Shown here piece by piece: positions 5,148-56,362 of a stretch of 64,000 nucleotides of DNA (positions within the stretch are counted from its first letter, which is position 1; every line of letters starts with the position of its first letter). The stretch lies in the IMG/VR virus record IMGVR_UViG_3300032797_000730; one strand, 5' to 3'. The notes beneath the pieces are model-generated. The model had not been told where the DNA came from. It ran no database searches and saw nothing but the letters and a program-made list of their open reading frames with translations. Source of the stretch: an uncultured virus (IMG/VR IMGVR_UViG_3300032797_000730). Taxonomy: Duplodnaviria > Heunggongvirae > Uroviricota > Caudoviricetes. The position numbers and the translations under genes were made by a program.

Positions 5148-5148
5148 C

Positions 5149-9767: not shown

Positions 9768-9932
9768 TCAGAACACCCCCAGGTACTTGCCAGTATCGCC
9801 CGTGTTGGAGGGGCAGTCCTCGTTGTCGCAATACTCTTCAACGGGGATGTCCTCGCCGATGTGCTCGGCCTCAGGGCCCCTTCTTGTTTTCAACTGGTTC
9901 CCGCATAGCGGGCACCTGTGGCTTTGGCTCGT
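9768..9932 (-). CDS. zinc-ribbon protein with apparent ACG start (not in ORF track)
   Basis: (M)SQSHRCPLCGNQL...YCDNEDCPSN...LGVF; stop abuts NDT ATG; no ATG/GTG/TTG upstream of the first CxxC. Confidence 0.6.
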   Translation of the reverse strand, partial: TSQSHRCPLCGNQLKTRRGPEAEHIGEDIPVEEYCDNEDCPSNTGDTGKYLGVF

Positions 9933-10335
9933 TCAACGTCGCCTCCTTTTTTATCATAATGGGTTTCTGTGGTACTGGCTTCACGGGGATGTTATCCATT
10001 TCGCCCCTTAACTCGGGGTATCTATCCTGGAGAACTAGCGTGAGATCCCTGGTCAACTTGTCCATCACCAGGTTGATGCACTTCCCCGCAATGTTCATGT
10101 CCTCGCCTCCCATCCTCAAGGAGGCGAGCTCGGCCTGCTTCTCCCTTATCTCGGGCGCGTCGGGGTTCTTGGGGTTCTTGAGCTCGTTGAAAAGCTCGAG
10201 CGCCCGCTTGCTGTTGGCGCCCATGATGGACGTGATCTGCCCGAGCACGAGTGACAAGGGCAGGATGTCCGTCTTCGCGTTGATGTAGTCCAACTTTTTA
10301 TTCATTTCGTTTAACTTGTGTATCAAGTCTTTCAA
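9871..10335 (-). CDS. hypothetical helical protein
   Basis: 154 aa, TTG start overlapping ArsR stop. Confidence 0.7.
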   Translation of the reverse strand: MKDLIHKLNEMNKKLDYINAKTDILPLSLVLGQITSIMGANSKRALELFNELKNPKNPDAPEIREKQAELASLRMGGEDMNIAGKCINLVMDKLTRDLTLVLQDRYPELRGEMDNIPVKPVPQKPIMIKKEATLNEPKPQVPAMREPVENKKGP

Positions 10336-10631
10336 GAGGTTTTGGCTCGTTTCTCGCTCACCTTTTCAAGGTCTATGGTTATCGATTTATGTTTCAACTT
10401 TATCATTGTTTTCCCGCCGGTGCCGTCCGTGAAGTAGTATTCCTCGACGAGGCCCGCCTCTTGTAAATCTTTCAGGTAGGCCCACGCCGTGCTCCATGCC
10501 ACGTCCAGCGTCTCCGCTATCTTTCCCTTTGGCAAGGGGGACTTGGCGAGCGCCAGGAGCATCCGGATCTTCGTGTTGTTGGCCAGCACCCGCCCTATCT
10601 CTCTCGCCTGCGCTTCAGTGATTACCTCCAT
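10332..10631 (-). CDS. ArsR-family winged-helix transcriptional regulator
   Basis: VLANNTKIRMLLAL...IAETLDVAWSTAWAYLKDLQEAGLV. Confidence 0.85.
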   Translation of the reverse strand: MEVITEAQAREIGRVLANNTKIRMLLALAKSPLPKGKIAETLDVAWSTAWAYLKDLQEAGLVEEYYFTDGTGGKTMIKLKHKSITIDLEKVSEKRAKTS

Positions 10632-11604
10632 CGGCTATCGCCGCCAGCAGGTATCCTACATGCACGTCCTTTATCCCGCCCGACCGGATGCGGTCGTCCG
10701 CCTCGGAGAAAGCGCGGGCTGCTGGAAACGCCAGCGGGCCCATCGCCGCGTGGAGCTGCTCGATGAAGTCACGAACATCGAACTGGAGACGGGCGTGCTC
10801 CTTCTCGAAGAAGGTTCGGGCCGCGTTATACTTTACCATCGCTGGCTTGTCCGTGGTGATCGGCCACTGTAGTATGTCCTTCACGTTCTCCACGATGCTG
10901 CTGATGTCGTCGCCAAAGTCCAGGTCCGCCATCGTGACGGGATGGTCGATGCCCCTGAGTTTTTCTAGGCAGTCGTTGATGGCGCGCCGCAAGTCCCCGT
11001 GGTAGAACTTCACGATGGCGTCGAGCACGGGGCATCTCTCGCCTTTCATGCCAAGGATGATGCCCTCCTTGTTGGCGATTTCCCATATTTTCCCACCCAT
11101 CCACTCGTCGGGGATGGCCTGGAACCGGAACGTGGCAGCCCTGCTGAGCATGGCCTCGATGTAGTCGGCCCGGTTACCACTCATAAAGAAGCGGCACCGG
11201 TCCTCGTACTTCTCGACCGTGTTACGCATGGCGTGTTGTGCGTCGCCCGTCACGTGGTCGGCCTCGTCCAGGAAACAGATGCGGAACGGCACGTCCCACG
11301 CGGGCCCGGCGCTGGCGAACTCCTTTATCTCGCCGCGCACCACGTCGATGCCCCTTTCATCCGAGGCGTTGAACTCCTTGAAGTCGGGGTGCTTCTCGTT
11401 CCACACGTCAAAGCCGTTGAACATGGCAGAAGCCATGCCCTTGGCCCACGTTGTTTTACCGCATCCAGGAGGCCCGACAAGGATGACGTGAGGCATGTCC
11501 TTGTTGGCTACCCATCGCTTGGAGACGGCTATGATCTTGTCCTGGCCGATGATCTGGTCAAGGGCATTGGGCCCCTGCGGCCGGTACTTGTCCACGAGCA
11601 TCAT
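10615..11604 (-). CDS. rfcS: replication factor C small subunit (clamp loader)
   Basis: LVDKYRP, GPPGCGKTT, EFNASDERGIDVVR, LDEADH, GDLRRAIN; true start ~11604. Confidence 0.95.
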   Translation of the reverse strand: MMLVDKYRPQGPNALDQIIGQDKIIAVSKRWVANKDMPHVILVGPPGCGKTTWAKGMASAMFNGFDVWNEKHPDFKEFNASDERGIDVVRGEIKEFASAGPAWDVPFRICFLDEADHVTGDAQHAMRNTVEKYEDRCRFFMSGNRADYIEAMLSRAATFRFQAIPDEWMGGKIWEIANKEGIILGMKGERCPVLDAIVKFYHGDLRRAINDCLEKLRGIDHPVTMADLDFGDDISSIVENVKDILQWPITTDKPAMVKYNAARTFFEKEHARLQFDVRDFIEQLHAAMGPLAFPAARAFSEADDRIRSGGIKDVHVGYLLAAIADGGNH

Positions 11605-11609
11605 GGCGA

Positions 11610-11948
11610 TCACGGCGTGATCGGGAGCCTGGCCTCCTTGTTGCCAGCGGTCGGCCCGATGAGGTCCTCGATCTTCGGGATTGCCGGGGACGAGGAGACT
11701 TCCCGCGCCAAGAAGATGCCGTAGATGATGTTGCTGCGGTTGTTGTACTCGTTCTTGTGAACATAGCACAGCTTCCAGCCATCCTTGCCAAGCCGGTTGA
11801 GGGCGTGCTCTATCATCATGCCCATCATCACCGTCCCGTCCATGGCACGGAGCTTCCCTTCGGCCTTGAGCTTGCTGTGCACCGCGTATTCCTCGGCGCA
11901 CATCTCCGACCAGTCCTTGTATCGCTTGTACTCTATCTGGTTTGCCAT
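11610..11948 (-). CDS. DUF4177-like hypothetical protein
   Basis: EYK...ALNRLGKDGWKLCYV pattern; starts MAN. Confidence 0.65.
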   Translation of the reverse strand: MANQIEYKRYKDWSEMCAEEYAVHSKLKAEGKLRAMDGTVMMGMMIEHALNRLGKDGWKLCYVHKNEYNNRSNIIYGIFLAREVSSSPAIPKIEDLIGPTAGNKEARLPITP

Positions 11949-11960
11949 TCAAAAATCACC
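11940..11960 (-). repeat. junction repeat B, copy 1 (GGTGATTTTTGAATGGCAAAC)
   Basis: Identical 21-mer at 25871-25891 on the + strand. Confidence 0.9.
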
Positions 11961-13028
11961 GTTCGTATCTGCTACGGTAGCAGTCTTTTCTTTTTTCTTG
12001 ATGATTACCTTGGTAACGCCGTCATCCACGACCTTGGCCTTCTTTGGCTTCTTCTCGGCCGCGAAGAGCTGTGCTGGAAAATCCAGCTTCACGCGGCGAT
12101 TAAAGCAGGGAAGGGCCGCCATCATGGAGGCGACATATGCTTGCTTGGTACGGCGTACCCATGAATCGACGGTGCTCAGCCCGTCGAGCATCGACAAGAG
12201 CGCCCCCATCGAGGGGGCCAGCCTGGCGGCGCTCCCGTCCACCCAATTAATTGCCCAAGATAAAGGGTCAGACGGGTGTTGGAGTGCAGCCAGTCGCCTC
12301 GCAGGATCCCGCTCGCCCACGATGACGCCTGCAATCCCCTCGGCCGAATACTCCTTCTCGGGCACGCGTTCGTCTCGAACGTCGTAGAGGATGCGGCGCA
12401 TTACTTCCCGGAAGTCGGGGGAATATATCTTCTCGGCATCGAGCGAGAGGTGCGGGAACTTCTTGTCGAGGAATACCTGGAGGTCTTTCAACTTGGGGGG
12501 GAACATCCGCATGACCGTGCATTGCTTCTTCACCGACTCTGGCACGCGGTCTATCTCGTTGCAGGTCATCACGATGGGGACCACGGCGTCCTCCAGGATA
12601 GAGTTGAAGGCGGCGTGCGAGCGCCAATAGAAGTTGTCGACCTCCTCGAATAGAAAGCAGGTGTTGGATTGAGTCGCGTGCCCGCCGAAGAGCTTCGAGT
12701 TGAGAAGCTCGGGCGTGCGGAACTCGGAAATGTTTATCTCGTTAAGGTTCTTGCCCGCGTCGTGGATGGCCTTGCGGGCGGAGATGGACTTGCCACATCC
12801 TGGCGGGCCGTGGATGATGACCTTCTCGCCAGCCAGGATGAGGGCCTTGAGCTTGGTAATCTCGTCGCCATGGCCAACGACAAACAGGGTGTCGGGCATC
12901 TCGTAGCTAGTGTAGGACTTGTACACGCCAGGCATCTCCCGGATCGGGATGCCCGTGGTCTGGGATATCTCCTCCAGGGTGAACCGGTTGGCCATGACAA
13001 GTTTTTTCAACATTTTCGCCGGGTCCAT
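11949..13028 (-). CDS. rfcL: replication factor C large subunit-like AAA+ ATPase
   Basis: GPPGCGKS, EINISEFRT, FEEVD, PIVMTCNE; Lys-rich tail ending ADTNGDF; near rfcS. Confidence 0.85.
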   Translation of the reverse strand: MDPAKMLKKLVMANRFTLEEISQTTGIPIREMPGVYKSYTSYEMPDTLFVVGHGDEITKLKALILAGEKVIIHGPPGCGKSISARKAIHDAGKNLNEINISEFRTPELLNSKLFGGHATQSNTCFLFEEVDNFYWRSHAAFNSILEDAVVPIVMTCNEIDRVPESVKKQCTVMRMFPPKLKDLQVFLDKKFPHLSLDAEKIYSPDFREVMRRILYDVRDERVPEKEYSAEGIAGVIVGERDPARRLAALQHPSDPLSWAINWVDGSAARLAPSMGALLSMLDGLSTVDSWVRRTKQAYVASMMAALPCFNRRVKLDFPAQLFAAEKKPKKAKVVDDGVTKVIIKKKEKTATVADTNGDF

Positions 13029-13049
13029 GAATTTGTAGAACTCGGCGAC

Positions 13050-13100
13050 TGTATTTATATTCTCGTGCCGGGAATTCCCGGCACAAAAAGGTTTAAATAA
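13050..13100. promoter_or_regulatory. divergent archaeal promoters
   Basis: + strand AAAAAGG-TTTAAATA (13085-13099); - strand TATAAATA ~25 nt before rfcL ATG; lies between divergent operons. Confidence 0.7.
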
Positions 13101-13168
13101 GGCAGCCGTTTCAAGGACGTGCCGAAAAGTTGATTTGTAACATTTTAAAACAACACAGGGTAAATAAC

Positions 13169-14875
13169 ATGGCGGTAGCAAAACGAGAACTCACGGAGAA
13201 AGAGTGGGCTGCGGAAGCAGCCTGGATAAAGAAGCTGGCCGAGTCGGCAGATGTCGAGCCAGAGGAAGTGAAAGGGAAGATAGCCGAGCGATTCGCCGAG
13301 TACGCGGACTTGAAGGAGCTCAAGGGCAAACCGGCGTCGTTCATCCTGCAGAGGGTGCGTAACCGGGTAACAGGAGACTTCAAAGGGCTTGCGAACCTCG
13401 ACACCTTCCACGGGTACATCGACGGGCCGAGCGGGCTGGAAAGGGACTGGAACGCCTCCAAGATGGCGGAGATACAGGACACGGCCAAGACACCGGATGC
13501 GGTGTTGGCCATGGCCAAGCCAACCATGGAGGAGAAGGTGATCGAAGGGAAGGCTACCAAGGTAGAGGTGCCTTCCAAGATCATCACCGTGACGGAGATC
13601 ATCGACGGGAAGCCAGTCGAGAAGCCGGTGCGGAAGCTGTTGAGGCCGATGCACAAGGACAAGGACGGCACGTGGCACGTCGTCCACGAGGTGAAAGAGG
13701 GCGGCAAGATGTTAAAGGCCTACGAGCTGTGGGAGAAGGCAGGCGATCCTGTTGTCCCGAGGGACACGTCAGAGTTCCTTGGTGACGGCAAGACCGAGAA
13801 TTTCAACTTCGGTGGCGAGCTCAAGCCTAACTGGGGCGTTAACCTCTCAGCAACATTCTTCTTGAGAAAGGAGGCCAACGAGTACTGCCCGAGGCGTGCC
13901 AATATCCAGGTCTATGGGGAGCTGGCGGACCCTGCTAACAAGGACAACATCGTGAAGGACCTTGAAGCGAGGGGGCTGTTCGGCGTGCCGGTGATGTTCA
14001 AGGGCGCGCTCAACACGGACAAGACCACGGAGGGACAGTTCCTCATCAGCGTGCGCCGCAAGTACGTGTGCCAGCCCCTGAAGGACGTGCCCGAGGGGAT
14101 GACTCTCGGGGCGAGCATCGATGCCTGGACCGGGCAGCCAGAATATTCGGGAGACCCGTTCGATGCATTCGAGGGCGGGGTGCCTGGGAAGCTTGTCAAG
14201 GGCGGTGACAGCCTTTTAGGAGAGTCCTTCGACAAGGGGATGCGTGCGGTGTACAAGGTAGGCACCACGGAGCGCGTGGATATGCTCTTCATGAAGGCGG
14301 AGGAAGCAAACGAGAAGGCTAAGAAGGCCGGGAAGGCGCCGCCGTATGCCATCAAGCTATTACCTTTCGCGACGGTAACGATGGGCACGCTGCGCGAGTG
14401 GCACGAGAAGTTCCAGATGACCACCAACGACTTCAAGGTCATCAAGCGAAAGACCGCCGACGAGTCCGGGGACTTCCAGGTAAAGAACAGGGCGAGATAT
14501 GCGGTCCTGGAATGCTCTGGGCAGCCTGCAGAAGCGCCTGCGGAGGGACAGTCGATACGGCTCGTTATCATGGACAGCGCCGACCCGGACACGAAGATGT
14601 CGGTGTTCCTGCCGAGGCACATTACGAGCGTCGGGTTCACTGGGCTGGCGGACCTCAAGCTCGTCATGCAGACCCGCAAGAAGGATACCTACTGGGACAA
14701 GGAAGCGAACGATAACCTGGAGGATGGTGATGGCCGGTTCGGCGACATACAACTGGACGTGGCGGCCATGATGGTGACGTTCGTGCACCCCGAGGAGGAG
14801 AATGACGTGCCTGGCACCGGCGGGATCGAGAAGAAGGTCAACGTGCCAGCGCCCGCGGAGAGGCCTGATGTCTGA
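13169..14875 (+). CDS. large hypothetical replication protein (possible ssDNA-binding/OB-fold)
   Basis: 568 aa, beta-rich, acidic C-terminal region, first gene of operon with ATPase and clamp; function inferred from context only. Confidence 0.6.
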   Translation: MAVAKRELTEKEWAAEAAWIKKLAESADVEPEEVKGKIAERFAEYADLKELKGKPASFILQRVRNRVTGDFKGLANLDTFHGYIDGPSGLERDWNASKMAEIQDTAKTPDAVLAMAKPTMEEKVIEGKATKVEVPSKIITVTEIIDGKPVEKPVRKLLRPMHKDKDGTWHVVHEVKEGGKMLKAYELWEKAGDPVVPRDTSEFLGDGKTENFNFGGELKPNWGVNLSATFFLRKEANEYCPRRANIQVYGELADPANKDNIVKDLEARGLFGVPVMFKGALNTDKTTEGQFLISVRRKYVCQPLKDVPEGMTLGASIDAWTGQPEYSGDPFDAFEGGVPGKLVKGGDSLLGESFDKGMRAVYKVGTTERVDMLFMKAEEANEKAKKAGKAPPYAIKLLPFATVTMGTLREWHEKFQMTTNDFKVIKRKTADESGDFQVKNRARYAVLECSGQPAEAPAEGQSIRLVIMDSADPDTKMSVFLPRHITSVGFTGLADLKLVMQTRKKDTYWDKEANDNLEDGDGRFGDIQLDVAAMMVTFVHPEEENDVPGTGGIEKKVNVPAPAERPDV

Positions 14876-16074
14876 TGATGCCATCGCCCCACACGGCGAC
14901 CAAGACATTCGTGGAGAAGCAGCCTTCCCCTGATTCTCCAGAGGCGGACGCGGAGACCAAGGCCCGCGTGGAGCAGGCCCGGAAAAACGCGGACATGGCA
15001 TTCTCCGAGGAGTACAAGCCAGGCTCTGGTTCCACGGGCCTGATCATTGCCGACATTGCCCTGGGGAAGGGGCACAAGACCACCTTCGCCTGGCAGTGGG
15101 CTTTTTTTAATTCCAAGTTCAAGTCCTTCATGGGGCCGCAGTGCCAGAGGATCATCACCACGGGACGATTGCCCGAGATAGAGAACATCGCTGTCGTGGA
15201 CACCGAGGAGACTGTCAAGAGGGACATGGATCACGGGTACCTGGGAGAGATAATGAAGCCCGTGATCGAGATAAGCAAGATACACATCGAGCCCGTGCCC
15301 CTGCTACGCAGCAGGGAGAAGATGAAGGATGGCGTCATCGTGAAGCTTGAAAAGGAATACGATGCCGACAAGATGCGGGACAACTTCGAGGCGGCCATCT
15401 GGGCTGCCGCTGAGAGGTTCAAGGGGAACACCCTTCTCATCGTGGATTCCATGAGTGATTATCGTGACATGATAACCGACGAGCAGGACACAATGGGCGG
15501 GAAAACCGTCATCAAGAAGTACGGGAGGAAGGCCGATGAGGAGGACGACGAGGAGACCAACACCGACCGCAGGTTCTACCGGTATCGCAACAAGTGGTGG
15601 ACCAACGTGCTGATGAAACTCAGGTCCACGTCGTGCTGGGTCGTCGAGACCTTCAAGCTGGAGACACGAGAGCCCGAGTGGCAATGGAAGGATGTCAAGA
15701 CGCGCGTGGGAACGGACAAGCTCAAGAAGGAGAGCTATGTCTACCATTCCATCAAACTGCCAGAGAACTATCCAGTGATGGTTGGAAAGACCGACTATCG
15801 TATCGACCAGGGTTACACGCTGCGCCAGATACTGGATGTCCAGACGGGCACCATGAAGGACTGCGTCCGCACGGACTGGTATCGCCACCCGCACAGCACG
15901 ATGCAGTACCTCAAGCTGCCTCAGGACCAGAGAGATACATGGGAATCCAAGTGCCTGCTCGACTTCCCGCAGTTCGATAGAATGGCATGCATGTATCTCA
16001 TAGAGGACATGGCGGCTGCACTACTTCAAGAGAGTGGCAAGACGAGTTGGGGCAAATATGGCAAGGAAAAATGA
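14875..16074 (+). CDS. RecA/Sak4-like P-loop NTPase
   Basis: Variant Walker A LGKGHKTT, IAVVDTE, Walker B LLIVDSMSD. Confidence 0.7.
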   Translation: MMPSPHTATKTFVEKQPSPDSPEADAETKARVEQARKNADMAFSEEYKPGSGSTGLIIADIALGKGHKTTFAWQWAFFNSKFKSFMGPQCQRIITTGRLPEIENIAVVDTEETVKRDMDHGYLGEIMKPVIEISKIHIEPVPLLRSREKMKDGVIVKLEKEYDADKMRDNFEAAIWAAAERFKGNTLLIVDSMSDYRDMITDEQDTMGGKTVIKKYGRKADEEDDEETNTDRRFYRYRNKWWTNVLMKLRSTSCWVVETFKLETREPEWQWKDVKTRVGTDKLKKESYVYHSIKLPENYPVMVGKTDYRIDQGYTLRQILDVQTGTMKDCVRTDWYRHPHSTMQYLKLPQDQRDTWESKCLLDFPQFDRMACMYLIEDMAAALLQESGKTSWGKYGKEK

Positions 16075-17071
16075 GGTGAAACCAGTGGCTGACAAGAAAG
16101 ACAAGCCGGTGGAGTTCGAGGTCAACCGAGAGGCGTTTCGCCAGTTCGTGGAGAACGTGCAGTGCAAGGGCATCTCGGACGTGAGCGAGAAGGAGAAGGT
16201 GACCCAGGGCGAGCTGTTCGAGAACTGCCTCCTCGAGGCGGTGAAGGGCAAAGGGATCGTCGTGAAGGCCACCGACACGAGCATCAACAAGGTGATCGGC
16301 CAGCACCTCCTCAGGGAGGGCGAGAGCCTCAAGGTAGTTACCGAGGGAGAGGTACCGGTTACCAACATCAAGAACCTGCTCATCGCGATTGGCAGGACGG
16401 GCGGCGACAAGAAGGGGAGATGCATGCAGGTACTCTATCCAGATCCAGACGAAGCCAACAAGATACGCCTCACCAGGATAGGGACGGAGACAGCGTTCTC
16501 CTTCACGACGAGCGGGCGTGGCGACATCACGTCCCTCAAGGACACGAGCGACATCCGCCACCGATGGGACGCAAAGTTAGGCTGCGTCATCTCCACGTCC
16601 ACCAAGACCAAGACGGAGATACCATGGACGCACAAGATCATCGTGGTGCCAGCGGCCCTTCGTGAGCTGGCCAAGGACGTTTCCAGCTTCGTCAAGCAGC
16701 GCGTCGCGAGGATGTCCATGGCTGGCCAGAAGTGCACGTTCCTCTTGGGTGAGGCGACCGCGTCGAAGAAGGGGGGCCGCGAGCTCACGCCCATCACGCG
16801 GAAGGTGATCGATGCCGAGATAGCCGAACCAGACAAGGACGGGTGGAAGCACGTGGCCAAGACGACGTGGAAGGAGGCTGGAGATGACGCCGAGAAGGTC
16901 GAGGCCAAGTACTACCACGGGTTCTACGCGGTGATACAGTCGCTCGAGGATTCCCTCCAGACCGAGCTGCACTGGGGCAAGATACCTGGCCTGGGGGACA
17001 GCTGGTATTGCTGGGTGCACGCGGAGAACGCCCTCATGGAACTGAACTACATGGTACCGTACGACAAGTAG
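16058..17071 (+). CDS. probable DNA sliding clamp (divergent PCNA/beta-clamp-like)
   Basis: FEVNREAFRQFV...LLEA..GIVVKATD...GEVPV.NIKNLL resembles the clamp fold, repeated; RFC and PolB present. Confidence 0.6.
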   Translation: MARKNEVKPVADKKDKPVEFEVNREAFRQFVENVQCKGISDVSEKEKVTQGELFENCLLEAVKGKGIVVKATDTSINKVIGQHLLREGESLKVVTEGEVPVTNIKNLLIAIGRTGGDKKGRCMQVLYPDPDEANKIRLTRIGTETAFSFTTSGRGDITSLKDTSDIRHRWDAKLGCVISTSTKTKTEIPWTHKIIVVPAALRELAKDVSSFVKQRVARMSMAGQKCTFLLGEATASKKGGRELTPITRKVIDAEIAEPDKDGWKHVAKTTWKEAGDDAEKVEAKYYHGFYAVIQSLEDSLQTELHWGKIPGLGDSWYCWVHAENALMELNYMVPYDK

Positions 17072-17080
17072 GTGGATGAC

Positions 17081-17296: not shown

Positions 17297-17319
17297 GTAA
17301 AACACGCACGCGGAGGCCC

Positions 17320-17469
17320 TGGCGGCCGGGCAATAGACCGCCAAAAACCAAGGCTGCCGGGCGGGAGAAAGGTTCCCGTCCAGAGGCGGTGGTGTCCTCA
17401 CGCTCAACGCCTGTGCGAGGGCGCGCGGAGAAGGCCATCGTCGCAGGGGCTCGCACAGCTCCTGGCAGC
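17320..17469 (+). ncRNA. unassigned highly structured RNA-like element
   Basis: TGGCGG/CCGCCA hairpin; closing stem GCTGCC(17353)/GGCAGC(17464-17469) enclosing GGGCGGGA/TCCCGTCC, GAGG/CCTC and CTGTGCGAG/CTCGCACAG; no credible ORF. Confidence 0.5.
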
Positions 17470-17478
17470 TATAACCCT

Positions 17479-17574
17479 GCGAGGGTAGCTCAGAAGCAGA
17501 GCACCGGGACACCAGCTTGAAGCCAGTGGCTGCATACCCGGCACGCGGAGGTGCGAGTCCTCCCCCTTGCTCCA
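17479..17574 (+). tRNA. tRNA with 21-nt anticodon-arm insertion, probably tRNA-Cys(GCA)
   Basis: Acceptor GCGAGGG/CCCTTGC, U73, encoded CCA; D stem GCTC/GAGC; AC stem CCGGG/CCCGG; T stem GGAGG/CCTCC; removing the insert leaves loop CT-GCA-TA. Confidence 0.65.
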
Positions 17575-17592
17575 AACAACGAGGCAAACAAT

Positions 17593-17850
17593 ATGACAAA
17601 GATCATCAACGCGGAACACTCGCCGAACATCAACGGCAAGGGCACCTGGTACGTCCTCATCGAGGTGGAGCGGTGCACCGAGAAGCACCCCGATCCATGG
17701 GACATCCATACGAAGCCATGCCAGAAGTGCGGAGGATACAGGGGGCATGGGGACAGGATAGAAACGTACAACGGTTTTGCAACGTTACAGGAATTGAAGG
17801 AATGGATAGATAGCAGGGTAGAACAGCATGGTAGTTCGCCGGACTCATAA
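17593..17850 (+). CDS. hypothetical protein overlapping tRNA-Met exon 1
   Basis: 85 aa with PCQKCGG, typical codons; TAA stop lies in the tRNA anticodon loop. Confidence 0.6.
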   Translation: MTKIINAEHSPNINGKGTWYVLIEVERCTEKHPDPWDIHTKPCQKCGGYRGHGDRIETYNGFATLQELKEWIDSRVEQHGSSPDS

Positions 17851-18012
17851 ACTGGTGGCGTGCTGGCAGATTGCGATTTGGCACTTTGGAAACACGCCTA
17901 GAAACGGCGCAGCCAAGACACCCCGTGCCCCAATAAATCCCCCTAACCGGGATGGCAGAAGGGCACGTCTTGGGACATCCGGTCATCGCAGGTTCAAATC
18001 CTGCCCCTGCTT
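17812..18012 (+). tRNA. initiator-type tRNA-Met(CAT) with 127-nt intron (17850-17976) at 37/38
   Basis: AGCAGGG/CCCTGCT (A1-U72), D stem GAAC/GTTC (A11-U24), CCGGA-CTCATA|A-TCCGG, T arm GCAGG-TTCAAAT-CCTGC; BHB central helix CUCA/UGGG with 3-nt bulges. Confidence 0.85.
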
Positions 18013-18036
18013 TTATGTTAACACGAGGCGAGACAA

Positions 18037-18918
18037 ACGAGCGAAAACAAGCCATACAAGTGCACGAAGTGCGGGTACAACCACAAAAGTGGTAAAATCT
18101 ACAACGAGCACAAGCAGTTCGCCGAGGTGAAGCCCACCGAGATCCAGGTAAAGGGCCAGGGCTCTTCACCGGTGGGGGGTTCATTCGACGAGCTGGACAA
18201 GATAGACGACGGCAGGCCGGGCGGCGGGGCGATCCCTATCCCGTCGACGAAGATGATCGTGACCAAGGACCATATCATCATCGGCAAGAACGCCACGGCC
18301 GAGCCCATTAAAAAGGGCGAGATCGTGAGGCCAGCGGGCATCGAAGATGACAAGAGAAGCCTGCTCCAGGCCTACAAGGTGGAGACGGCCAAGGACGGGA
18401 AAATGACGGGCACCGCCAGCCAGGCGGGCAAGATCATCAAGACGGCCAGGGTAGTCATCGAGCCCGAGAAGAAGGATTCTCAAGGGGCGTTCACGGTCAA
18501 GCACCTGGACGCGTTCCTGCTACACGCTAACCGGAAGCAGGTGAACCTGCTCACGACCGAGTTCCCGTGGGTGGTGAAGGATGGCGCGAGGCTCAAGGCC
18601 AACTGGCGGGTAGGGTGCTGGGAAAAACCCGACGGAGGGCGCATCCCGTTCACGGTCGAAGAGATGGTGAAGTACGCCGTCCTCATCGACAAGGTGAGCG
18701 GGAAGCACGCGGGGCTGCTCAAGAAGCGGCGCGCCAAGAAGGCGCTACGTGACTCGGCATACCCAAACACGTGGACCGAGCACGCCGCCGGGATCAAGGG
18801 CCAGTGCAAGGATTGCGTTAACAGGGGCGCCAAGTCGTGCGGGAACATGACCGTCGACGAGATCGTCAACGTCCTCGAGGGGAAGGCCAACTGCCCGATC
18901 TACAAGAAAGAGGGATAG
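18037..18918 (+). CDS. protein with N-terminal C2H2-like Zn finger and C-terminal Cys cluster; apparent ACG start
   Basis: In-frame extension upstream of GTG 18127: (M)SENKPYKCTKCGYNHKSGKIYNEH; SD-like GAGGCGA 5 nt before ACG. Confidence 0.7.
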   Translation, partial: TSENKPYKCTKCGYNHKSGKIYNEHKQFAEVKPTEIQVKGQGSSPVGGSFDELDKIDDGRPGGGAIPIPSTKMIVTKDHIIIGKNATAEPIKKGEIVRPAGIEDDKRSLLQAYKVETAKDGKMTGTASQAGKIIKTARVVIEPEKKDSQGAFTVKHLDAFLLHANRKQVNLLTTEFPWVVKDGARLKANWRVGCWEKPDGGRIPFTVEEMVKYAVLIDKVSGKHAGLLKKRRAKKALRDSAYPNTWTEHAAGIKGQCKDCVNRGAKSCGNMTVDEIVNVLEGKANCPIYKKEG

Positions 18919-18921
18919 GCC

Positions 18922-19074
18922 ATGTTGAAGGTAGAGATATTTTGTGGCAGCGCTTCCGATGTTAAAAAGGAATGCAATGCGTTTCTCTCGGGCATCAAGA
19001 GCGAGGACGTGGTCGATTTTAAAATTGCCGAGAACGGCATCTTCATAACCATCGTGGTGATGCACGAGCTTTGA
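18922..19074 (+). CDS. small hypothetical protein (not in ORF track)
   Basis: MLKVEIFCGS...IVVMHEL, 50 aa, fills gap, TTGA overlap. Confidence 0.65.
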   Translation: MLKVEIFCGSASDVKKECNAFLSGIKSEDVVDFKIAENGIFITIVVMHEL

Positions 19075-19508
19075 GGGCCGTGGCGCTGGTGATATCGAGG
19101 ACCCTCGTTCCGGGCATCGAGGGCAGCCAGCTGGGTGCCATGCTACGGGACGTGTTCAGGAAGTCGAAGAACACGTGCTTCGTCGTGGAGGAGCTACGCC
19201 AGCCCATCATGGCAATGATGGAGCAGTATTCACAAGGGGGGTGTGCGATGGTATCCATCGTGCCAAAGCTGCGGAAGTACAAGCGAAAGCAGGATGCCTA
19301 CCTGGCCAGGGCCGTGGAAATGGCGGAGGCGAGCCAGGAGTGCTTCGCGTTCCATGACCTGGCGGACTGGACAAACTCCTCGGTGATGATAGCGGCCGCG
19401 TTCAAGGAGATGCACCCGGAGTATCTCCTGGCCACCTATCTCGTGATAGATGGAGCAGTGATAGAAGTGACGCTCGACGAAATGAAGAGGAGGAGCGGGT
19501 TCTTATGA
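19071..19508 (+). CDS. hypothetical protein (possible SLOG/Rossmann-like)
   Basis: 145 aa; AYLARAVEMAEASQECFAFHD resembles SLOG RN..M......AF.D. Confidence 0.55.
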   Translation: MRAVALVISRTLVPGIEGSQLGAMLRDVFRKSKNTCFVVEELRQPIMAMMEQYSQGGCAMVSIVPKLRKYKRKQDAYLARAVEMAEASQECFAFHDLADWTNSSVMIAAAFKEMHPEYLLATYLVIDGAVIEVTLDEMKRRSGFL

Positions 19509-22500
19509 TGATGCCGCCACTGATGAACGAGCACATCTTCATCAAGGTAGCGCCCATCACCGACACGCGCACGATATGCATCATCAACAAGAACCACGAG
19601 ACCATGACCAAGGACGGGGAGGAAGTGCCCGTCTGGGTCGTGGCGGGGAAGGAGAAGGACGGCCGCCACTGGATGCTCAGGGTGCACGGGCCCCGCGTGC
19701 GGCCATCGTTCGGCGTGCCCTACGAGGAATTCTGGAAGGTGATGGACGATACCAGGCTCACGGGGTTCAGGAGGGGGCCAGACTCGCCATTCGGGGAGCC
19801 GGTGATGGAGGTGTTCACGAAGCTGCCAAAGGATATAGGGTCGGGGGAAGCAGCCATGCGGAACTTCGTGAGCCACTCGTACCAGGGAGACGTGCGGTTC
19901 GAGGACAAGGTGGCAATCGACCTTCGTATATGGGAGGGCTACATGACGTTCGATGCCAATGCCGTCGGTGAATTTGGATACGTGGAGGATAGATACGTTG
20001 GCCCGCCGCCAGAGGGGTACGAGAAGTTCTACGTGCCCAAGACGAAGGTGTACTTCGATTCGGAATGGAACATGGCAATGCTGGCGGACGGGGAGGGGCG
20101 GATACGGTTCAGGAGAAAGAAAGGGCAGAAGGATGACCCGACGAAGTATGAAAAGGCCAAGGTAATAACAATCTCCTTCCTGGAAGCGGTGGGATGGAAG
20201 TTCCACGTGTTCACGTGGCACCCGAGGGTGAAGGTGAAGTGCAAGTTCCAGGAGCAATACCTCTCGCGCATCGCCGAGAAGGCGAGGAAGCGGCTGCCAC
20301 AGATGCCAAGGGAATACACGGCCGAGATACACGCGTGCACGAGCGAGAGGGAGTTGCTCGTGGCGATGGTGGATTACCTGGCAGGGGCGCAGATAGATTG
20401 TCTCATCGGGTTCAACGCGTTCTCCGGGATACACGGGATCGGGGGGGACAAGAAGTGGATAAATGGGTTTGACATGCCCTGGCTGTACAGGCACTGCATG
20501 GTCAACCCGAAGCACAATACTAACTGGGTGCCGAGGGACCCGGACGTGAACCTCCATCGCATATCGCCTGTTGGCGTGACGTACATGCGGGAGGAGTTCG
20601 GGAAGGAGGAAGTCGTTATAAGGATGATAACGTGCCTGGACCTCTGGCACATGATGAGCTTCTTCGAGTACCACAAGAAAGACAAGCTCAAGAACGAGAA
20701 GCAAGGAACGTTCATGGAGAAGTACCTGGGGATAGGGAAGTATCCACGGAAGTATAAGTGGGTCTGGGAGGAATGGGAGAAGGAGCCGCTCGACGAGAGA
20801 AAGTACAACATGGCCGACACCGAGGGATGCGCGGGCGTGGAGCAGATATTTAACCCGAGCGAGGACTGCTTCAACAGGGCCACGTTCTCTGGCGCCAGCT
20901 GGGACGCAGGGATGTCGGCGAGCAGGCTGCACGACCTGGTGAACCTGCACCTCTACAAGGACTGCTATTACCTGGATTCAAAATCATATGATGACCGGCA
21001 CGAGCGGATTTGGTTATGGGGAGGATTTAGCGATGAGAAGGTAGGGGGGTTTAACAAGGAGGTTAACAAGGGGATGCACAGGATGGCCATCGGCCTGGAC
21101 TTCAACAAGTTCTACCCGATGGCGGGGATCGGTTCTAATTGCGCCCCCGAGACGTTCGTGAACATGACCAGGCTCAAGCTTGACAAGCGGGGCCTGGTCG
21201 TCGTGGACAAGCGCCCCTATCTCAAGCACGAGGTGACGGACTGGCCAGCGTTCGTGAAGGAGTGCAAGGAGTTGAGGGAGAGGGACGCGCTCACGAGGAC
21301 GCTCGCAGTGCAGGATGTCATCACGAATGACCTCATCGGCTGGAAGGAGACAGAGTATCTCTGGGGAGACTTGATAGTTACCCCGGCGGGGCTGTTCAGG
21401 AAGGACATCATCGCCAAGAATGTCAAGGCGTTCCAGGACATGCTCAAGAACAGGAAGGCGCTCCAGAAGATAGCGGACAAGATACTGGAGGCTATCAAGG
21501 ACAAGGACGCGTTCGAGTACGTGCTGGCGGACCTGCGGCAGTTCTCCTACAAGCAGTACATGAACGGAAGGTTCGGGGTGCAGGGGCTGGAATCTGATAG
21601 GCTTTACATGCTGGCGCTGTTCAACACCTATACCCTCGTGTGCCAGGAGATAATCAAGGAATGTATCAGGTACATCGAGGAGGAGCTCGTGTATCCGGTG
21701 AACCTGGCGAGCACGGATTCCATGTTCGTCGATGCCAAGCTGCCCCCGAAATGGATCGAGGACAAGGGAAAGGTGTACTTGCAGGAGGCCGAATGGCTCT
21801 CGGAGAAAGTGCAGGAACACGCCCAGGAGTTTGCCATGCACGAGTTCAACATCAGCGACCCGAGCGTGTTCACGCTTGAATGCGATGTCATCTGCAAGAC
21901 CATGTTCATCGAAAACATGCGGTTTTACATCAAGAACGTGATGTGGAGCAAGGGGGTCATCCTGGACCCGCCGCAGCTGGAATTCAAGGGAATGAAGAAG
22001 GTACGGCGGGAAGTGGCGGCGATAACCGAGGACGTGCAGGAGCGGCTCGGCAAGATATACATGAACGACGGGACGTTCCAGGACATCCAAAACGAGGTCA
22101 AGAAGCTGCACGCCGAGTTCTCGTCCAAGCCACTGTGGGAGGTGTGCAAGTCCCTTCCAGTGAACCAGCCACTCGATGATTATGCCGAGACGAGCGAGCA
22201 GTTCAAGGCGTTCACGATGGCCGACAAGTACTTCGGCCTGGACGTGTCGGTGGGCGAGCGGTTCTATGTCGCCCCCGTGAAGTACTGCCCGCCCGCGATA
22301 AAGGGCATCAAGGTAGACCCGCGGCTCGGGGATGTCTTGGCATTTGACGAGGACACGCTCCCGGCGATAGAGGCCGCGGGGATAGTGATAGACGTGCACG
22401 AGCTGGAGGACAAGGCCGTGGCATCGCCCGCGGACGAGATACTCGAGATGTTCGGCACGGGATATTGGAAAATACTGTCGGCCGCGAGGATAGCCGACAC

Positions 22501-22516
22501 GACGGGTGAATTCTGA
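19505..22516 (+). CDS. polB: family B DNA polymerase with 3'-5' exonuclease
   Basis: ExoI FDSE, ExoII GFN...FDMPWL, ExoIII YNMAD; Pol A LDFNKFYP, B KQYMNGRFG, C STDSMFV; ends ADTTGEF. Confidence 0.93.
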   Translation: MMMPPLMNEHIFIKVAPITDTRTICIINKNHETMTKDGEEVPVWVVAGKEKDGRHWMLRVHGPRVRPSFGVPYEEFWKVMDDTRLTGFRRGPDSPFGEPVMEVFTKLPKDIGSGEAAMRNFVSHSYQGDVRFEDKVAIDLRIWEGYMTFDANAVGEFGYVEDRYVGPPPEGYEKFYVPKTKVYFDSEWNMAMLADGEGRIRFRRKKGQKDDPTKYEKAKVITISFLEAVGWKFHVFTWHPRVKVKCKFQEQYLSRIAEKARKRLPQMPREYTAEIHACTSERELLVAMVDYLAGAQIDCLIGFNAFSGIHGIGGDKKWINGFDMPWLYRHCMVNPKHNTNWVPRDPDVNLHRISPVGVTYMREEFGKEEVVIRMITCLDLWHMMSFFEYHKKDKLKNEKQGTFMEKYLGIGKYPRKYKWVWEEWEKEPLDERKYNMADTEGCAGVEQIFNPSEDCFNRATFSGASWDAGMSASRLHDLVNLHLYKDCYYLDSKSYDDRHERIWLWGGFSDEKVGGFNKEVNKGMHRMAIGLDFNKFYPMAGIGSNCAPETFVNMTRLKLDKRGLVVVDKRPYLKHEVTDWPAFVKECKELRERDALTRTLAVQDVITNDLIGWKETEYLWGDLIVTPAGLFRKDIIAKNVKAFQDMLKNRKALQKIADKILEAIKDKDAFEYVLADLRQFSYKQYMNGRFGVQGLESDRLYMLALFNTYTLVCQEIIKECIRYIEEELVYPVNLASTDSMFVDAKLPPKWIEDKGKVYLQEAEWLSEKVQEHAQEFAMHEFNISDPSVFTLECDVICKTMFIENMRFYIKNVMWSKGVILDPPQLEFKGMKKVRREVAAITEDVQERLGKIYMNDGTFQDIQNEVKKLHAEFSSKPLWEVCKSLPVNQPLDDYAETSEQFKAFTMADKYFGLDVSVGERFYVAPVKYCPPAIKGIKVDPRLGDVLAFDEDTLPAIEAAGIVIDVHELEDKAVASPADEILEMFGTGYWKILSAARIADTTGEF

Positions 22517-22524
22517 TGGCAAAC
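22505..22524 (+). repeat. junction repeat A, copy 1 (GGTGAATTCTGATGGCAAAC)
   Basis: Identical 20-mer at 24017-24036. Confidence 0.9.
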
Positions 22525-22749
22525 TACAAGCGGTTCATCGACGAGCTTGACAACACGATCATGGATGCCCTGTTCCCAGGATGGCGAGGGAAGGCCTGGT
22601 ACTGGTGGAATGACCTGGCCCCGAGGTTCCTCAACCGCAACTGGTTCCGGTGGTATTTCTGGTACTGGTGGATGCCCGACTTCAACCCGGATGGCCCTGT
22701 TGGCAAGGCGTATTACTATATCAGGCACAAGAAATGGAGGTGGCGATGA
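22516..22749 (+). CDS. Trp-rich small protein
   Basis: 77 aa starting MAN, very rich in W/Y/R. Confidence 0.7.
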   Translation: MANYKRFIDELDNTIMDALFPGWRGKAWYWWNDLAPRFLNRNWFRWYFWYWWMPDFNPDGPVGKAYYYIRHKKWRWR

Positions 22750-23189
22750 TGGTGGACATAGCGATATACATGCTGGTGTTCATGGCGGGCGGGATGATCT
22801 TCGAGGCCATGGGATTCGCCCTTGGCGTGGCAAGGAGAAACCGGTTCGACGAGAAGAACTGGAACATGACCCAATTCCTAGACCATTCCGAGTCGGCGTA
22901 CCTGGACAGCCACGATGACTTCTCGATAGCCATGATGCGCGCCAAGCCAAGGATCTCCAACCTGGCAATCGATCTCGTGTTCGAGGACATGGACTGGCGC
23001 TGCGTCACGAAGGGCGAGATAGCCCGCGCTGAAAACTACGCGCTCATCTTGGGCAAGAAGGAGAAGATCGCTGCATGGTGGCGGGAGAAGCGGGACGATT
23101 TTATTCTCGATCACGGGTCGTTCCATGCCAAGAACGAGATACGAAAGAGAAGGGCGTTCGATGCCATGGGCGTGGAGGAGATTCCATGA
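22746..23189 (+). CDS. hypothetical protein with N-terminal TM helix
   Basis: GGAGGTGG SD, ATGA overlap. Confidence 0.7.
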   Translation: MMVDIAIYMLVFMAGGMIFEAMGFALGVARRNRFDEKNWNMTQFLDHSESAYLDSHDDFSIAMMRAKPRISNLAIDLVFEDMDWRCVTKGEIARAENYALILGKKEKIAAWWREKRDDFILDHGSFHAKNEIRKRRAFDAMGVEEIP

Positions 23190-24028
23190 TACAATCATTT
23201 GGATATTTCGGGGGCAAAGCCTGGCTCGTTCCAGAGCTCGTCAGGCTCACGCCCCCTCATCTCATATCAATAGAAGCGTTTGGAGGGGCCGCGTGGTACA
23301 CGCTCAACAAGCCAAAGTCACATGCCGAGGTCGTGAATGACATCAATGACCTGCTGGTAAACATGTGGGAAGCTATACGTACCAACGTGGATAGATTCAA
23401 GGAGCGCAACGAGCGGGTGATAGATGCACGAAAGCTCTACCTGGACTACGAGAAGGAATACACGGATGACAAGTGGGTTAATTGTGATGCCGTGGAGAAG
23501 GCGTTCCGGTTCTATTACATGGTGACGCACAGCTTCTCCTTCACGATGCACGGGTTCCACGCCATGCGGTTCGACGAGGGGACGGCCCAGCACACGAGCT
23601 ATAGAAACAAGATAGAGATAATAGACGAGATATATAACAGGATAAAGGACGTGCACTTCCGCAACGAGGACGTGTTCAAGATGCTGCCCAGGTGTGACAA
23701 GCCGGACACGTTCATGTACCTCGATCCTCCATACGAGCAGGGAGGATATGCATACGAGGAGATCATCGGGGGCAAGCCTTGGAAGGAGGGCGACGCGCAA
23801 AGGTTAAAAGAAATGATCCATTCTTTTAAAAACGCGAAAGTTTTATTGTCGGTCGACAACGGTGAATTTTACTTGAAGGATGGTTGGACCATGCAAATAA
23901 TGGACAAGGGTGGAAGGAAAACGAAGGCGGGCGCGACCCCGAACCGCGAGTGCCTCGTCATGAACTACGAGAGGCCCAAGCAAGGGTTCAGGTTGAGCAC
24001 GGCTGCATCTACAAGCGGTGAATTCTGA
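23186..24028 (+). CDS. dam: DNA adenine methyltransferase (Dam/D12 class)
   Basis: YFGGK, EAFGGA, VVNDIN, YLDPPY; ends ASTSGEF. Confidence 0.92.
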   Translation: MIQSFGYFGGKAWLVPELVRLTPPHLISIEAFGGAAWYTLNKPKSHAEVVNDINDLLVNMWEAIRTNVDRFKERNERVIDARKLYLDYEKEYTDDKWVNCDAVEKAFRFYYMVTHSFSFTMHGFHAMRFDEGTAQHTSYRNKIEIIDEIYNRIKDVHFRNEDVFKMLPRCDKPDTFMYLDPPYEQGGYAYEEIIGGKPWKEGDAQRLKEMIHSFKNAKVLLSVDNGEFYLKDGWTMQIMDKGGRKTKAGATPNRECLVMNYERPKQGFRLSTAASTSGEF

Positions 24029-24036
24029 TGGCAAAC
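24017..24036 (+). repeat. junction repeat A, copy 2
   Basis: Identical to 22505-22524. Confidence 0.9.
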
Positions 24037-24174
24037 AACATGGAGCATTGCCCGTTCCACCACGCAACGGGGAGGTACTGTTCGAGGACCATGTGCACGT
24101 GCACGGGCCTGGACAGGAGGCGGTTCGAGTACAGGAAATGCTCGCATTACAAGGACGGGGTGAGGGACGCGTGA
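24028..24174 (+). CDS. small Cys/His-rich protein (not in ORF track)
   Basis: MANNMEHCPFHH...YC...CTC...KCSHY, 48 aa, coupled at both ends. Confidence 0.7.
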   Translation: MANNMEHCPFHHATGRYCSRTMCTCTGLDRRRFEYRKCSHYKDGVRDA

Positions 24175-24713
24175 CCTACGGGGGCAAGGGAAAAACGGCG
24201 GAATGGGGCACGCCTCCAGACGTGTTCAAGTCGCTCGACGCCGAGTTCCACTTCACGCTGGACCCGTGCGCCAACGACAAGAACCACAAGTGTGACAAGT
24301 ACTACACCAAGGATGATGATGGCCTCACCAAGTCCTGGAAGGGCGAGGTCGTGTTCATGAACCCGCCATATGGAAAGGCAATAGCCCAGTGGGTGCAGAA
24401 GGCCTACATGGAAGCGCTCGGTGGTACCACGGTGGTCTGCCTCCTGCCCGTCAACACGGACACTGGCTGGTTCCAGGATTACATCTATCATAAGGCCGAG
24501 ATCAGGTTCCCAAGAGGAAGGATTAACTTCGTGAACGAGAAGGGCGAGACGGTGAAAGGGTCAAATCATTGTAGCATGTTCGTGATATACACGTCGGAGA
24601 GCGTGGCGCCCCCTCCAACCAACCCCACGAGATCATACTGCACGCTGGACAGCAAGTGCAACGTGTTCACGCCGTGTGTCGAATGCAGGTATTGCCTGGT
24701 GATGAAGAGATGA
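24171..24713 (+). CDS. phage-type DNA N6-adenine methyltransferase
   Basis: EWGTPP...FTLDPCA...DGL..SW...FMNPPYG...CLLP..TDT.WF...GRINF; Cys-rich tail. Confidence 0.92.
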   Translation: MTYGGKGKTAEWGTPPDVFKSLDAEFHFTLDPCANDKNHKCDKYYTKDDDGLTKSWKGEVVFMNPPYGKAIAQWVQKAYMEALGGTTVVCLLPVNTDTGWFQDYIYHKAEIRFPRGRINFVNEKGETVKGSNHCSMFVIYTSESVAPPPTNPTRSYCTLDSKCNVFTPCVECRYCLVMKR

Positions 24714-25384
24714 CACTCTACGTTGCTGGCATCGAGACATGCGCCCTCGCCGAGTTTGGAAAGGGGCTGGCGTGCGTGATATTCCTGCAAGGCTGCGACA
24801 TGAAATGCGGGTACTGCCAGAACCCCGAGCTCAGGGCGCCCTACAGCGAGAAAGTCATGGAGGCCACGGCCGACCAGATCATCGCCGAGATACCATGGGA
24901 TGACATAGACGCTATATCAGTGACGGGCGGCGAGCCCCTGTGGTCCGTGATGGGGCCGGGGAGCGGGACGGGCGACTTGATAAAGCTATTCGAGCACGCC
25001 CGCAGGAAACAGAAAACGACCAACGTGGACTCGAACGGGCTATACACCAACGAGGGGAAGGCAAGGGTACTCTCGCTCGTGGCGCCATTCCTCACGACGA
25101 TAAGCATCGATATAAAACACGCGAGCACGACGTATCTCGAACAGATGGCCCAGGCATTGAGACGGGCCGAGGTGTTTCACAAGGCACGGTTTCGGATGGT
25201 TCTTTACGAGGGCAGGTGGCAGAAGAGGTCGTGCATCGACTCTGGCGTTATGACAATGCTCCTTCTCGGGATAAAGAAGATAAGAGGCACGAGGAATGGC
25301 ATGGCCGCTCCAATGATGTCGGATGAGGATTGCATTGCCATGCAGGAAGCATATAACAATGCAGGAATAGAGCTGGTGATTTAA
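24710..25384 (+). CDS. nrdG: radical SAM glycyl-radical activase (anaerobic RNR activating enzyme)
   Basis: IFLQGCDMKCGYCQNPE, SVTGGEP, DSNG, IDIK; NrdD present at 42.7 kb. Confidence 0.8.
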   Translation: MTLYVAGIETCALAEFGKGLACVIFLQGCDMKCGYCQNPELRAPYSEKVMEATADQIIAEIPWDDIDAISVTGGEPLWSVMGPGSGTGDLIKLFEHARRKQKTTNVDSNGLYTNEGKARVLSLVAPFLTTISIDIKHASTTYLEQMAQALRRAEVFHKARFRMVLYEGRWQKRSCIDSGVMTMLLLGIKKIRGTRNGMAAPMMSDEDCIAMQEAYNNAGIELVI

Positions 25385-25882
25385 ACGAGCGACGCGGCGA
25401 AGAAAGCAAAGAAACGATACGAGGACGAGATAATGCCCGCCAACGTTCATGGGGATGACTTCGTGCTCGTGCACTCGATCACGGGGTATGGAAGGAAGGC
25501 TTTCCTCATTGACATGGTAAAGAAAGGGGCCGAGCCCTTCGGGAAAGGGGTGGAGATTGTAAAGGAGGATGCGGGCTCGGTGAAGCGCCAGGAGTTCAGG
25601 GAGGGAGAGTTCGTGTCGTATGGCGGGCAGGTGTTCGTCGCGTTCCCGCTCGCGGACCTGGATCTCATCGGGAGCGTGATCAAGGTATCGCTGCTTCGCT
25701 CGTGGATGAAATCGGACGAGGGCGATGTCGCTGCCGAGGGGCATCTTCTCGTGCTCGAGGATGGCGTGGGGGACTGCGTGGCGATAGCGGGCTGCGGCCC
25801 CGTCGAGGGAAACGATAGAAAGATAATGGCTGCTGTTGAATCGTTGATGGTAAAAACGGCCGACCCTTTTGGTGATTTTTGA
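25385..25882 (+). CDS. hypothetical protein; apparent ACG start (first ATG at 25433)
   Basis: GGTGA SD, then ACG AGC immediately after nrdG stop, in frame; ends ADPFGDF. Confidence 0.7.
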   Translation, partial: TSDAAKKAKKRYEDEIMPANVHGDDFVLVHSITGYGRKAFLIDMVKKGAEPFGKGVEIVKEDAGSVKRQEFREGEFVSYGGQVFVAFPLADLDLIGSVIKVSLLRSWMKSDEGDVAAEGHLLVLEDGVGDCVAIAGCGPVEGNDRKIMAAVESLMVKTADPFGDF

Positions 25883-53286: not shown

Positions 53287-53291
53287 TCACA

Positions 53292-56346: not shown

Positions 56347-56362
56347 TTTTTAAACCTTTACC
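56347..56362 (-). promoter_or_regulatory. putative BRE/TATA promoter
   Basis: GGTAAAGG-TTTAAAAA ~24 nt upstream of ATG 56323. Confidence 0.6.

Follow-up and report, generated by a model that had tools for sequence, protein, structure and literature searches.

Initiation at the near-cognate codon ACG is classical in eukaryotes and their viruses, as in VP2 of adeno-associated virus (AAV) and the C' protein of Sendai virus. The DNA analysed here (the window) is a 64,000-nucleotide stretch of an uncultured virus of the Caudoviricetes (IMG/VR record IMGVR_UViG_3300032797_000730), in which five genes, labelled (a) to (e), probably use ACG as a start codon that works, probably weakly, and is read by initiator tRNA. 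The likeness to AAV VP2 and Sendai C' lies in an ACG that heads a conserved frame, in a presumed initiator Met-tRNA that pairs with a central mismatch, and in a presumed lower yield and dependence on context. The setting is different, as here the start codons lie behind Shine-Dalgarno motifs on polycistronic, prokaryote-type messages and are not selected by scanning and Kozak context, and they are found in a tailed virus, probably an archaeal one, at five genes and not at one alternative isoform.

In Escherichia coli, ACG behind a strong ribosome-binding site (RBS) allowed protein to be detected, with Met and a trace of Thr at the N-terminus, according to the available text of a preprint (Hecht et al., bioRxiv 10.1101/063800). 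That system is engineered and bacterial, whereas the ACG codons described here are natural, occur at conserved starts and are in one case evolutionarily retained. For archaea, the available part of the Asano review (PMC4705826) gives AUG, GUG and UUG as start codons, and ACG is not listed there. Like such GUG and UUG starts, the ACG codons are driven by an RBS and interchange with ATG among relatives, as seen at site (b), where the codon is ATG, GTG or ACG in three genomes; in GUG and UUG, however, the mismatch is at codon position 1, whereas in ACG it is at position 2, and ACG is not an accepted start in translation table 11. Genomic ACG at a conserved start is likewise found in plant organelles, where it is edited to AUG (PMC9845219, available part), whereas no editing machinery has been found here among the window proteins scanned against Pfam.

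An earlier note on this DNA had pointed out three ACG codons, at sites (a), (b) and (c), each in the context A-ACG-AGC, and all three are present in the sequence exactly as described. Two more sites, (d) and (e), extend the observation from three sites to five:

Gene (a): 9768..9932, minus strand, 54-residue Zn-ribbon protein (CPLC...CDNEDC), start ACG 9932-9930.
Gene (b): 18037..18918, plus strand, 293-residue protein with an N-terminal C2H2-like finger, start ACG 18037-18039.
Gene (c): 25385..25882, plus strand, 165-residue protein, start ACG 25385-25387.
Gene (d): 9871..10350, minus strand, 159-residue protein, start ACG 10350-10348.
Gene (e): 58665..60533, minus strand, baseplate-J-like protein (Pfam Baseplate_J), start ACG 60533-60531.

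In gene (a), the RBS GGAGGCGA at 9946-9939 is followed by the 6-nt spacer cgttga and by ACG AGC, and the in-frame stop TGA 9935-9933 directly adjoins the ACG. The frame reads TSQSHRCPLCG...YCDNEDC, and its stop (9770-9768) abuts ATG 9767, where a gene for a nucleoside deoxyribosyltransferase (Pfam PF05014) begins. Not until TTG 9893, downstream of CPLC, the first Cys pair, is there a canonical start, and the public gene call for gene (a) (P0009), which begins at this TTG, is only 41 residues long. In gene (b), the RBS GAGGCGA (18025-18031) and the 5-nt spacer gacaa precede ACG AGC; the upstream in-frame stop is TAA 18019, the frame begins SENKPYKCTKCGYNH...H, and the first canonical start, GTG 18127, lies 30 codons downstream of the ACG. 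The statement of the earlier note that no canonical start lies ahead of the intact finger is therefore correct for both genes, and without the ACG start gene (a) would lose its first Cys pair and gene (b) its whole finger. In gene (c), the ACG directly follows TAA 25382-25384 of a radical-SAM gene (Pfam Fer4_12, Radical_SAM; called nrdG in the earlier note), behind the RBS GGTGA (25375-25379) and the 5-nt spacer tttaa, and is again followed by AGC. It is in frame with the internal ATG 25433, which is preceded by its own GAGGA, 7 nt upstream. The spacers measured at the three sites are thus 6, 5 and 5 nt, within the 5-6 nt that had been claimed.

Gene (d) has the RBS AAGGTGA (10364-10358), the 7-nt spacer gcgagaa and ACG AGC, and a canonical TTG (10335) lies 5 codons downstream of the ACG, from which the gene has been called as 9871-10335. 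Gene (e) has the RBS GGTGA (60543-60539), the 5-nt spacer gtaaa and ACG AGC. It is a weaker case, because a canonical in-frame GTG (60542-60540) is situated 9 nt upstream of the ACG, within the RBS motif itself. Genes (a) to (d) did not match any Pfam or PHROG family, and their Atlas function matches are all below 0.9 and serve as leads only.

The comparison at the DNA level makes use of two related genomes. L002 is a 19.8-kb metagenome contig that is syntenic with the window from 7.8 to 29.5 kb; 23 window genes match it, with 27-85% amino-acid identity. G001 is a 70,984-bp IMG/VR record, reached via a profile match of gene (c), that matches 50 of the 84 window genes. The start regions were inspected by eye for the 23 pairs with L002 and for the 39 pairs with G001 in which the match starts within the first 45 residues. 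The codons at the aligned start positions, together with homologous proteins from other searches, are as follows:

Site (a), ACG AGC: L002, GGAGG-9nt-ATG AGT; G001, AGGAGG-9nt-ATG AGC.
Site (b), ACG AGC: L002, GAGGTGA-5nt-ATG AGC; G001, GGAGGGTGA-6nt-GTG AGC; proteins P0006 and P0007 begin with M.
Site (c), ACG AGC: L002, GGAGGTGg-catga-ACG AAC GAC; G001, GGTGA-taaa-ATG AAT GAT; protein P0012, MSVAEKAVKRY; protein P0013, MTCAAKDR.
Site (d), ACG AGC: L002, GGTGA-6nt-TTG GGA CAA GAA AAC; G001, ATG TCG CAA AAC TTG ATG AAA GAC.
Site (e), ACG AGC TAC GGG TTC: L002, not covered; G001, ttGGTGA-atgag-ATG AGC TAT GGA TTC.

At all five sites the aligned codon is canonical (ATG, GTG or TTG) in L002, in G001 or in both, and the other inspected pairs have canonical, plausibly aligned starts in both genomes. 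Because ACG stands at the start-codon position of the relatives in five genes, the virus most likely starts translation at ACG. The earlier note had left it to the homologues whether the N-terminal extensions exist and whether ATG or a conserved ACG would be found. The extensions are present in the homologues, where they are begun by ATG, GTG or TTG; a canonical codon is found at all five sites, whereas ACG itself is conserved only at (c), in L002. There it is likewise situated right behind the stop of the upstream gene (TGA), the frame is intact, and T1, D3, K6, A8, R11, Y12, D14 and P18 are invariant between L002 and the window. The internal ATG codons of gene (c) in the window and in L002 are not aligned to each other. 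The profile search with gene (c) returned six proteins at E <=0.001, of which four were aligned, leaving out the window's own P0008 and the weak match P0014 (651 residues), and the extension is conserved in L002, G001, P0012 and P0013.

The extensions of (a) and (d) are conserved in L002 and G001, and at (d) the sequence MSQNLMKDLI of G001 aligns with TSQNLLKDLI of the window. For gene (b), a word-index protein search gave P0006 (MSNENKPYKCTKCGYNH) and P0007 (MSKPYKCTKCGYNH), both carrying the finger, which is also conserved in L002 and G001. When the 25 finger codons of the window are compared with those of L002, 12 are identical, 8 differ by synonymous and 5 by non-synonymous changes. The extensions are coding sequence. 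Word-index protein searches with (a) and (c) returned only the window's own truncated calls, and no relatives were found by megablast against phage records or with a profile of the family-B DNA polymerase (PolB) in IMG/VR and GTDB genomes. P0002 matched only L001 in IMG/VR, in a weak, unrelated match of 24 residues.

The geometry of the ribosome-binding sites is in agreement with this assignment. Genes (84 in total) were called with a codon-usage model trained on the long open reading frames (ORFs) of the window, and the RBS geometry was taken from unambiguous starts, where a GGAGGTGA-like motif has its last base 5-7 nt before the start codon. At all five ACG sites the distance from the end of the motif (GGTGA or GGCGA) to the ACG is also 5-7 nt, the same as for the ATG, GTG and TTG starts of the virus, and no RBS motif precedes TTG 9893 or GTG 18127. 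The 84 genes together contain 917 non-start codons in the gap that separates the in-frame stop upstream from the first canonical start, and these codons were scanned for a preceding motif that agrees with GGAGGTGA in 6 or more of 8 positions and is spaced 5-7 nt from the codon. Among these gap codons, ACG is found 5 times behind the motif and every other non-start codon at most twice; in a looser scan window, ATG is found 16 times, ACG 8 times and each other codon at most three times. In this window-wide scan, which the earlier note had suggested, ACG is the sole enriched non-start codon, and site (d) is recovered. The five ACG codons of the scan are sites (a) to (d) and a further ACG at 53311-53309 (minus strand), which reads ACG CAA, directly follows an in-frame TAA, has a weak GGAAATGA motif and is treated as a chance occurrence. 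It was rejected because GTG 53290, 1 nt past the TGA of the upstream gene, is a normal coupled start, and the N-terminus is not conserved in G001; a search of IMG/VR with the gene at 52406-53290 found no relative. A search for genes with only an ACG start in uncovered stretches gave two Arg-rich ORFs, 17308-17520 and 41975-42142, which are unconvincing.

The context A-ACG-AGC, described in the earlier note as common to its sites, is real. It is found at five of the five window sites, a count that has to be read with the ascertainment in mind, as the earlier reader picked sites by context and (d) was first noticed in a list of the heptamer; the scan, which was not conditioned on AGC, still returned the four sites (a) to (d). 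When compared with 70 RBS-supported canonical starts, of which 4 have AGC as the second codon and 18 have A at position -1, the context of the ACG sites is thus far from random. Serine as the second residue is partly ancestral, as at (a), (b) and (e) relatives have ATG with AGC or AGT as the next codon, and at site (c) the context in L002 is A-ACG-AAC. The heptamer AACGAGC occurs 26 times in the window, against 8.8 expected, because AAC-GAG and GAC-GAG are frequent codon pairs, and therefore the heptamer alone is not the signal. A possible further case is seen in G001 at about 54829-54824 (minus strand), at the head of the gene 53690-54823, where AAGGTGA-acaata-ACG AGC TTG GAC has the same signature; the TTG two codons on makes this start ambiguous, and the region corresponds to sequence past the end of the window.

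As judged from these alignments, the ACG codons occupy real start positions. The way in which they would be used can be outlined as follows. Shine-Dalgarno pairing via the GGAGGTGA-like motif, at a distance of 5-7 nt, would position the 30S subunit; the initiator Met-tRNA (anticodon CAU) would then pair with ACG, the central C-A mismatch being tolerated, and the product, synthesised at a lower rate, would carry an N-terminal Met. Initiation of ribosomes at ACG, insertion of Met and lowered expression are what we infer from the sequence data. The ACG starts would have arisen by single T-to-C changes of an ancestral ATG, tolerated or selected in this lineage, with one ACG, at gene (c), common to the window virus and L002. 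The earlier note had proposed programmed near-cognate initiation, or else C-to-U editing, controlling a subset of genes. Near-cognate initiation is indeed the best reading of the sites, whereas programmed control of a subset is not shown; the five genes are mixed in kind and the relatives use normal starts for four of them.

Several observations weigh against initiation at ACG. Canonical alternatives are near three of the five genes, namely ATG 25433 with its own GAGGA in (c), TTG 10335 in (d), which overlaps the upstream stop as TTGA, and GTG 60542 in (e). Simple near-cognate initiation would not predict the strict A-ACG-AGC context at all five sites, which might instead reflect a process with sequence specificity, for instance editing or a hot spot of mutation. 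The comparison of DNA sequences rests on two related genomes only, and the archaeal host is likely rather than established. Where its initiation has been measured, ACG performs poorly. The archaeal factor aIF1 is reported to reject the non-AUG codon AUU, according to the available part of the Asano review (PMC4705826). The literature search found no natural ACG start described in archaea or their viruses, and the available text of a Haloferax ribosome-profiling paper has no occurrence of 'ACG'.

It is possible, although unlikely, that the ACG codons are not decoded and that the starts have been lost in early gene decay, so that truncated proteins are made from nearby canonical codons, or none are made. 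The codons in question are TTG 9893, GTG 18127, ATG 25433, TTG 10335 and GTG 60542; some in-frame canonical codon is thus available in each gene, the alternatives in (c), (d) and (e) have the favourable positions mentioned above, and the calls of public gene callers are exactly these truncations. However, TTG 9893 and GTG 18127 are without an RBS, and their use would cost the proteins one half or the whole of a zinc finger on which purifying selection acts. Decay also has to account for five losses that are all the same one of the seven possible non-canonical single-base variants of ATG, for the intact RBS ahead of the ACG codons, and for five genes without frameshifts or internal stops. At (c) the ACG is retained in L002 together with the conserved extension, and the internal ATG codons of the window and L002 are not aligned.

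C-to-U RNA editing, which would make AUG from ACG as at the starts of plant-organelle genes, with A-ACG-AGC as the recognition site of the enzyme, is considered very improbable. The identical context at the five window sites and at the sixth candidate in G001 (ACG AGC TTG) is what a sequence-specific enzyme would give, the more so as AGC is rare at canonical starts, and ACG-to-AUG editing is established in chloroplasts (PMC9845219, available part). On the other hand, the 60 window proteins scanned against Pfam include no cytidine-deaminase or PPR-type family, a result that concerns the window only, and site (c) of L002 reads ACG AAC and not ACG AGC. The 26 copies of AACGAGC are mostly within genes, and therefore a motif-driven editor would recode many Thr, Asn-Glu and Asp-Glu positions. 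No C-to-U editing of mRNA is known in archaea, bacteria or their viruses, although the literature was not searched for it. Less probable still, and hardly credible, is a sequencing or assembly error, in which the true bases would be T and the genes would start with ATG. A systematic basecalling error would look like this, with one and the same T-to-C change in one and the same heptamer each time. Against it, the window contains 38 readings of ATGAGC and 3 of AATGAGC, and ATG AGC begins several genes, including cgaATGAGC at 34778, with A at position -1. Random errors frequent enough to reach 5 of about 85 start codons would not have left long ORFs intact, such as that of the 1003-residue PolB, which has 72% identity to L002. 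The ACG at (c) is found again in L002, an independent assembly of another virus, and the truncated calls P0005 and P0008 are each present on 3 contigs of the Joint Genome Institute (JGI) and P0009 on 2; no M-initiated full-length variant of these three calls turned up. Systematic T-to-C miscalls linked to methylation, considered as three DNA methyltransferases are encoded, were rejected because ATGAGC is read 38 times.

Two recoding schemes were also rejected. In the window (TAA ACG) and in L002 (TGA ACG), the radical-SAM gene and gene (c) are in one frame, as would be needed for a readthrough fusion, but not in G001, where they occupy different frames, with an ATGA overlap, and (c) starts at an ATG of its own. 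A dnaX-type -1 frameshift from (d) into (a) at A AAA AAG (9953-9947, minus strand) would lead into the wrong frame, as the zinc-ribbon frame of (a) is +1 and is blocked by TGA 9935-9933. L002 is without the slippery heptamer (AAT AAG AAG GAG), and its gene (a) has its own ATG. The heptamer A AAA AAG at 9947-9953 is in frame in (d), directly before GGAGG; its -1 frame runs for 19 codons, and its presence is probably incidental.

With respect to the strict context, a published model of extended codon-anticodon pairing, between mRNA position -1 and tRNA position 37, does not provide an explanation as far as the available part of that work describes it, because all sites have A at -1 opposite A37. 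A more speculative proposal, and a rather doubtful one, is that A-ACG-AGC, when preceded by a Shine-Dalgarno motif, serves archaeal viruses, and perhaps their hosts, as a dedicated weak-start signal that depends on context and would set expression levels. Speculatively, an obligatory +4 A/+5 G could pair with U33/C32 of the initiator anticodon loop (CUCAUAA) and so offset the central C-A mismatch. Alternatively, the virus's own intron-bearing tRNA(CAU), with its A1:U72 pair and weakened anticodon stem, might relax start selection during infection.

If initiation at ACG is true for these genes, gene callers that use table 11 would systematically truncate or mis-start such genes of archaeal viruses; in the present case 13, 30 and 16 residues are missing from three public calls, and with them whole zinc fingers. 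It would also add a near-cognate start with a second-position mismatch to the prokaryotic repertoire and bring archaeal initiation nearer to the ACG-using pattern of eukaryotes. The five matched ATG/ACG gene pairs in close relatives would then form a natural set for studying the stringency of start selection and the context rules at +4 and +5, and ACG starts may also be of use in marking the host lineage of uncultured viruses.

The window is that of a tailed virus. Its gene content includes Baseplate_J, a family-B polymerase, NrdD, two AAA+ proteins, three DNA methyltransferases and several glycosyltransferases; 1 of 14 proteins has a PHROG match, and no capsid or terminase family was recognised among the window proteins scanned. 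PolB matches 10 of 50,697 phage records, all of them tailed viruses of Halorubrum or Haloarcula, with about 24% identity. A sequence similar to an archaeal BRE plus TATA box (BRE, transcription factor B recognition element), AAAGGTTTAAAWA, is present twice, against 0.01 expected, at 13087-13099 (plus strand) and at 56347-56359 (minus strand), and the two copies precede the gene 13130-14875 and the tail-module operon, respectively. The window also has a tRNA gene:

tRNA with anticodon CAU: 17812..18012, plus strand, Rfam RF00005, 42.9 bits; A1:U72; 129-nt intron after position 37.

The PolB matches, the intron after position 37 and the BRE/TATA-like boxes together make it likely that the host is an archaeon. 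A 21-nt piece of the 3' half of the tRNA matched 103 stretches, of which the best 80 are mostly bacterial tRNA genes plus one archaeal metagenome-assembled genome, and is uninformative for the host.

The tRNA(CAU) gene ends 25 nt before the ACG of gene (b), which is noted as context only, no link to the decoding of ACG being shown. It is kept in L002 (9065-9211) and in G001 (L110; 10239-10392), with compensatory changes in the acceptor stem, and has an A11:U24 pair; its introns are 129 nt in the window, about 75 nt in L002 and about 80 nt in G001. Three G:C pairs in the anticodon stem are typical of initiator tRNAs, and this tRNA has two (one in G001). It could be an initiator, an elongator Met or an Ile2 tRNA, and it is missed by ARAGORN. 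A second tRNA, at 17479-17571 (plus strand), scores 41.6 bits in Rfam; its anticodon arm is enlarged by an insertion of 21-28 nt, and G3 pairs with U70. The ARAGORN assignment, tRNA-Gly(ACC), is improbable, and folding gave no clear anticodon. A viral tRNA that reads ACG was considered as well, a tRNA-Thr(CGU) of viral origin having been reported in the HFTV1 preprint, and was rejected, as neither tRNA of the window has a CGU anticodon.

The three DNA methyltransferases are the following:

7823-8947, minus strand, DNA methyltransferase.
23075-24025, plus strand, DNA methyltransferase.
24018-24710, plus strand, DNA methyltransferase.

They are of the N6/N4 type, the D12 class and Dam-like, and may indicate heavy methylation of the genome. 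Gaps between the gene calls also contain several small, Cys-rich (zinc-ribbon-like) ORFs that begin normally, with ATG or GTG, at 4984-5148, 29924-30106 and 17594-17810 (all on the plus strand), and the virus seems to be rich in small zinc-finger proteins.

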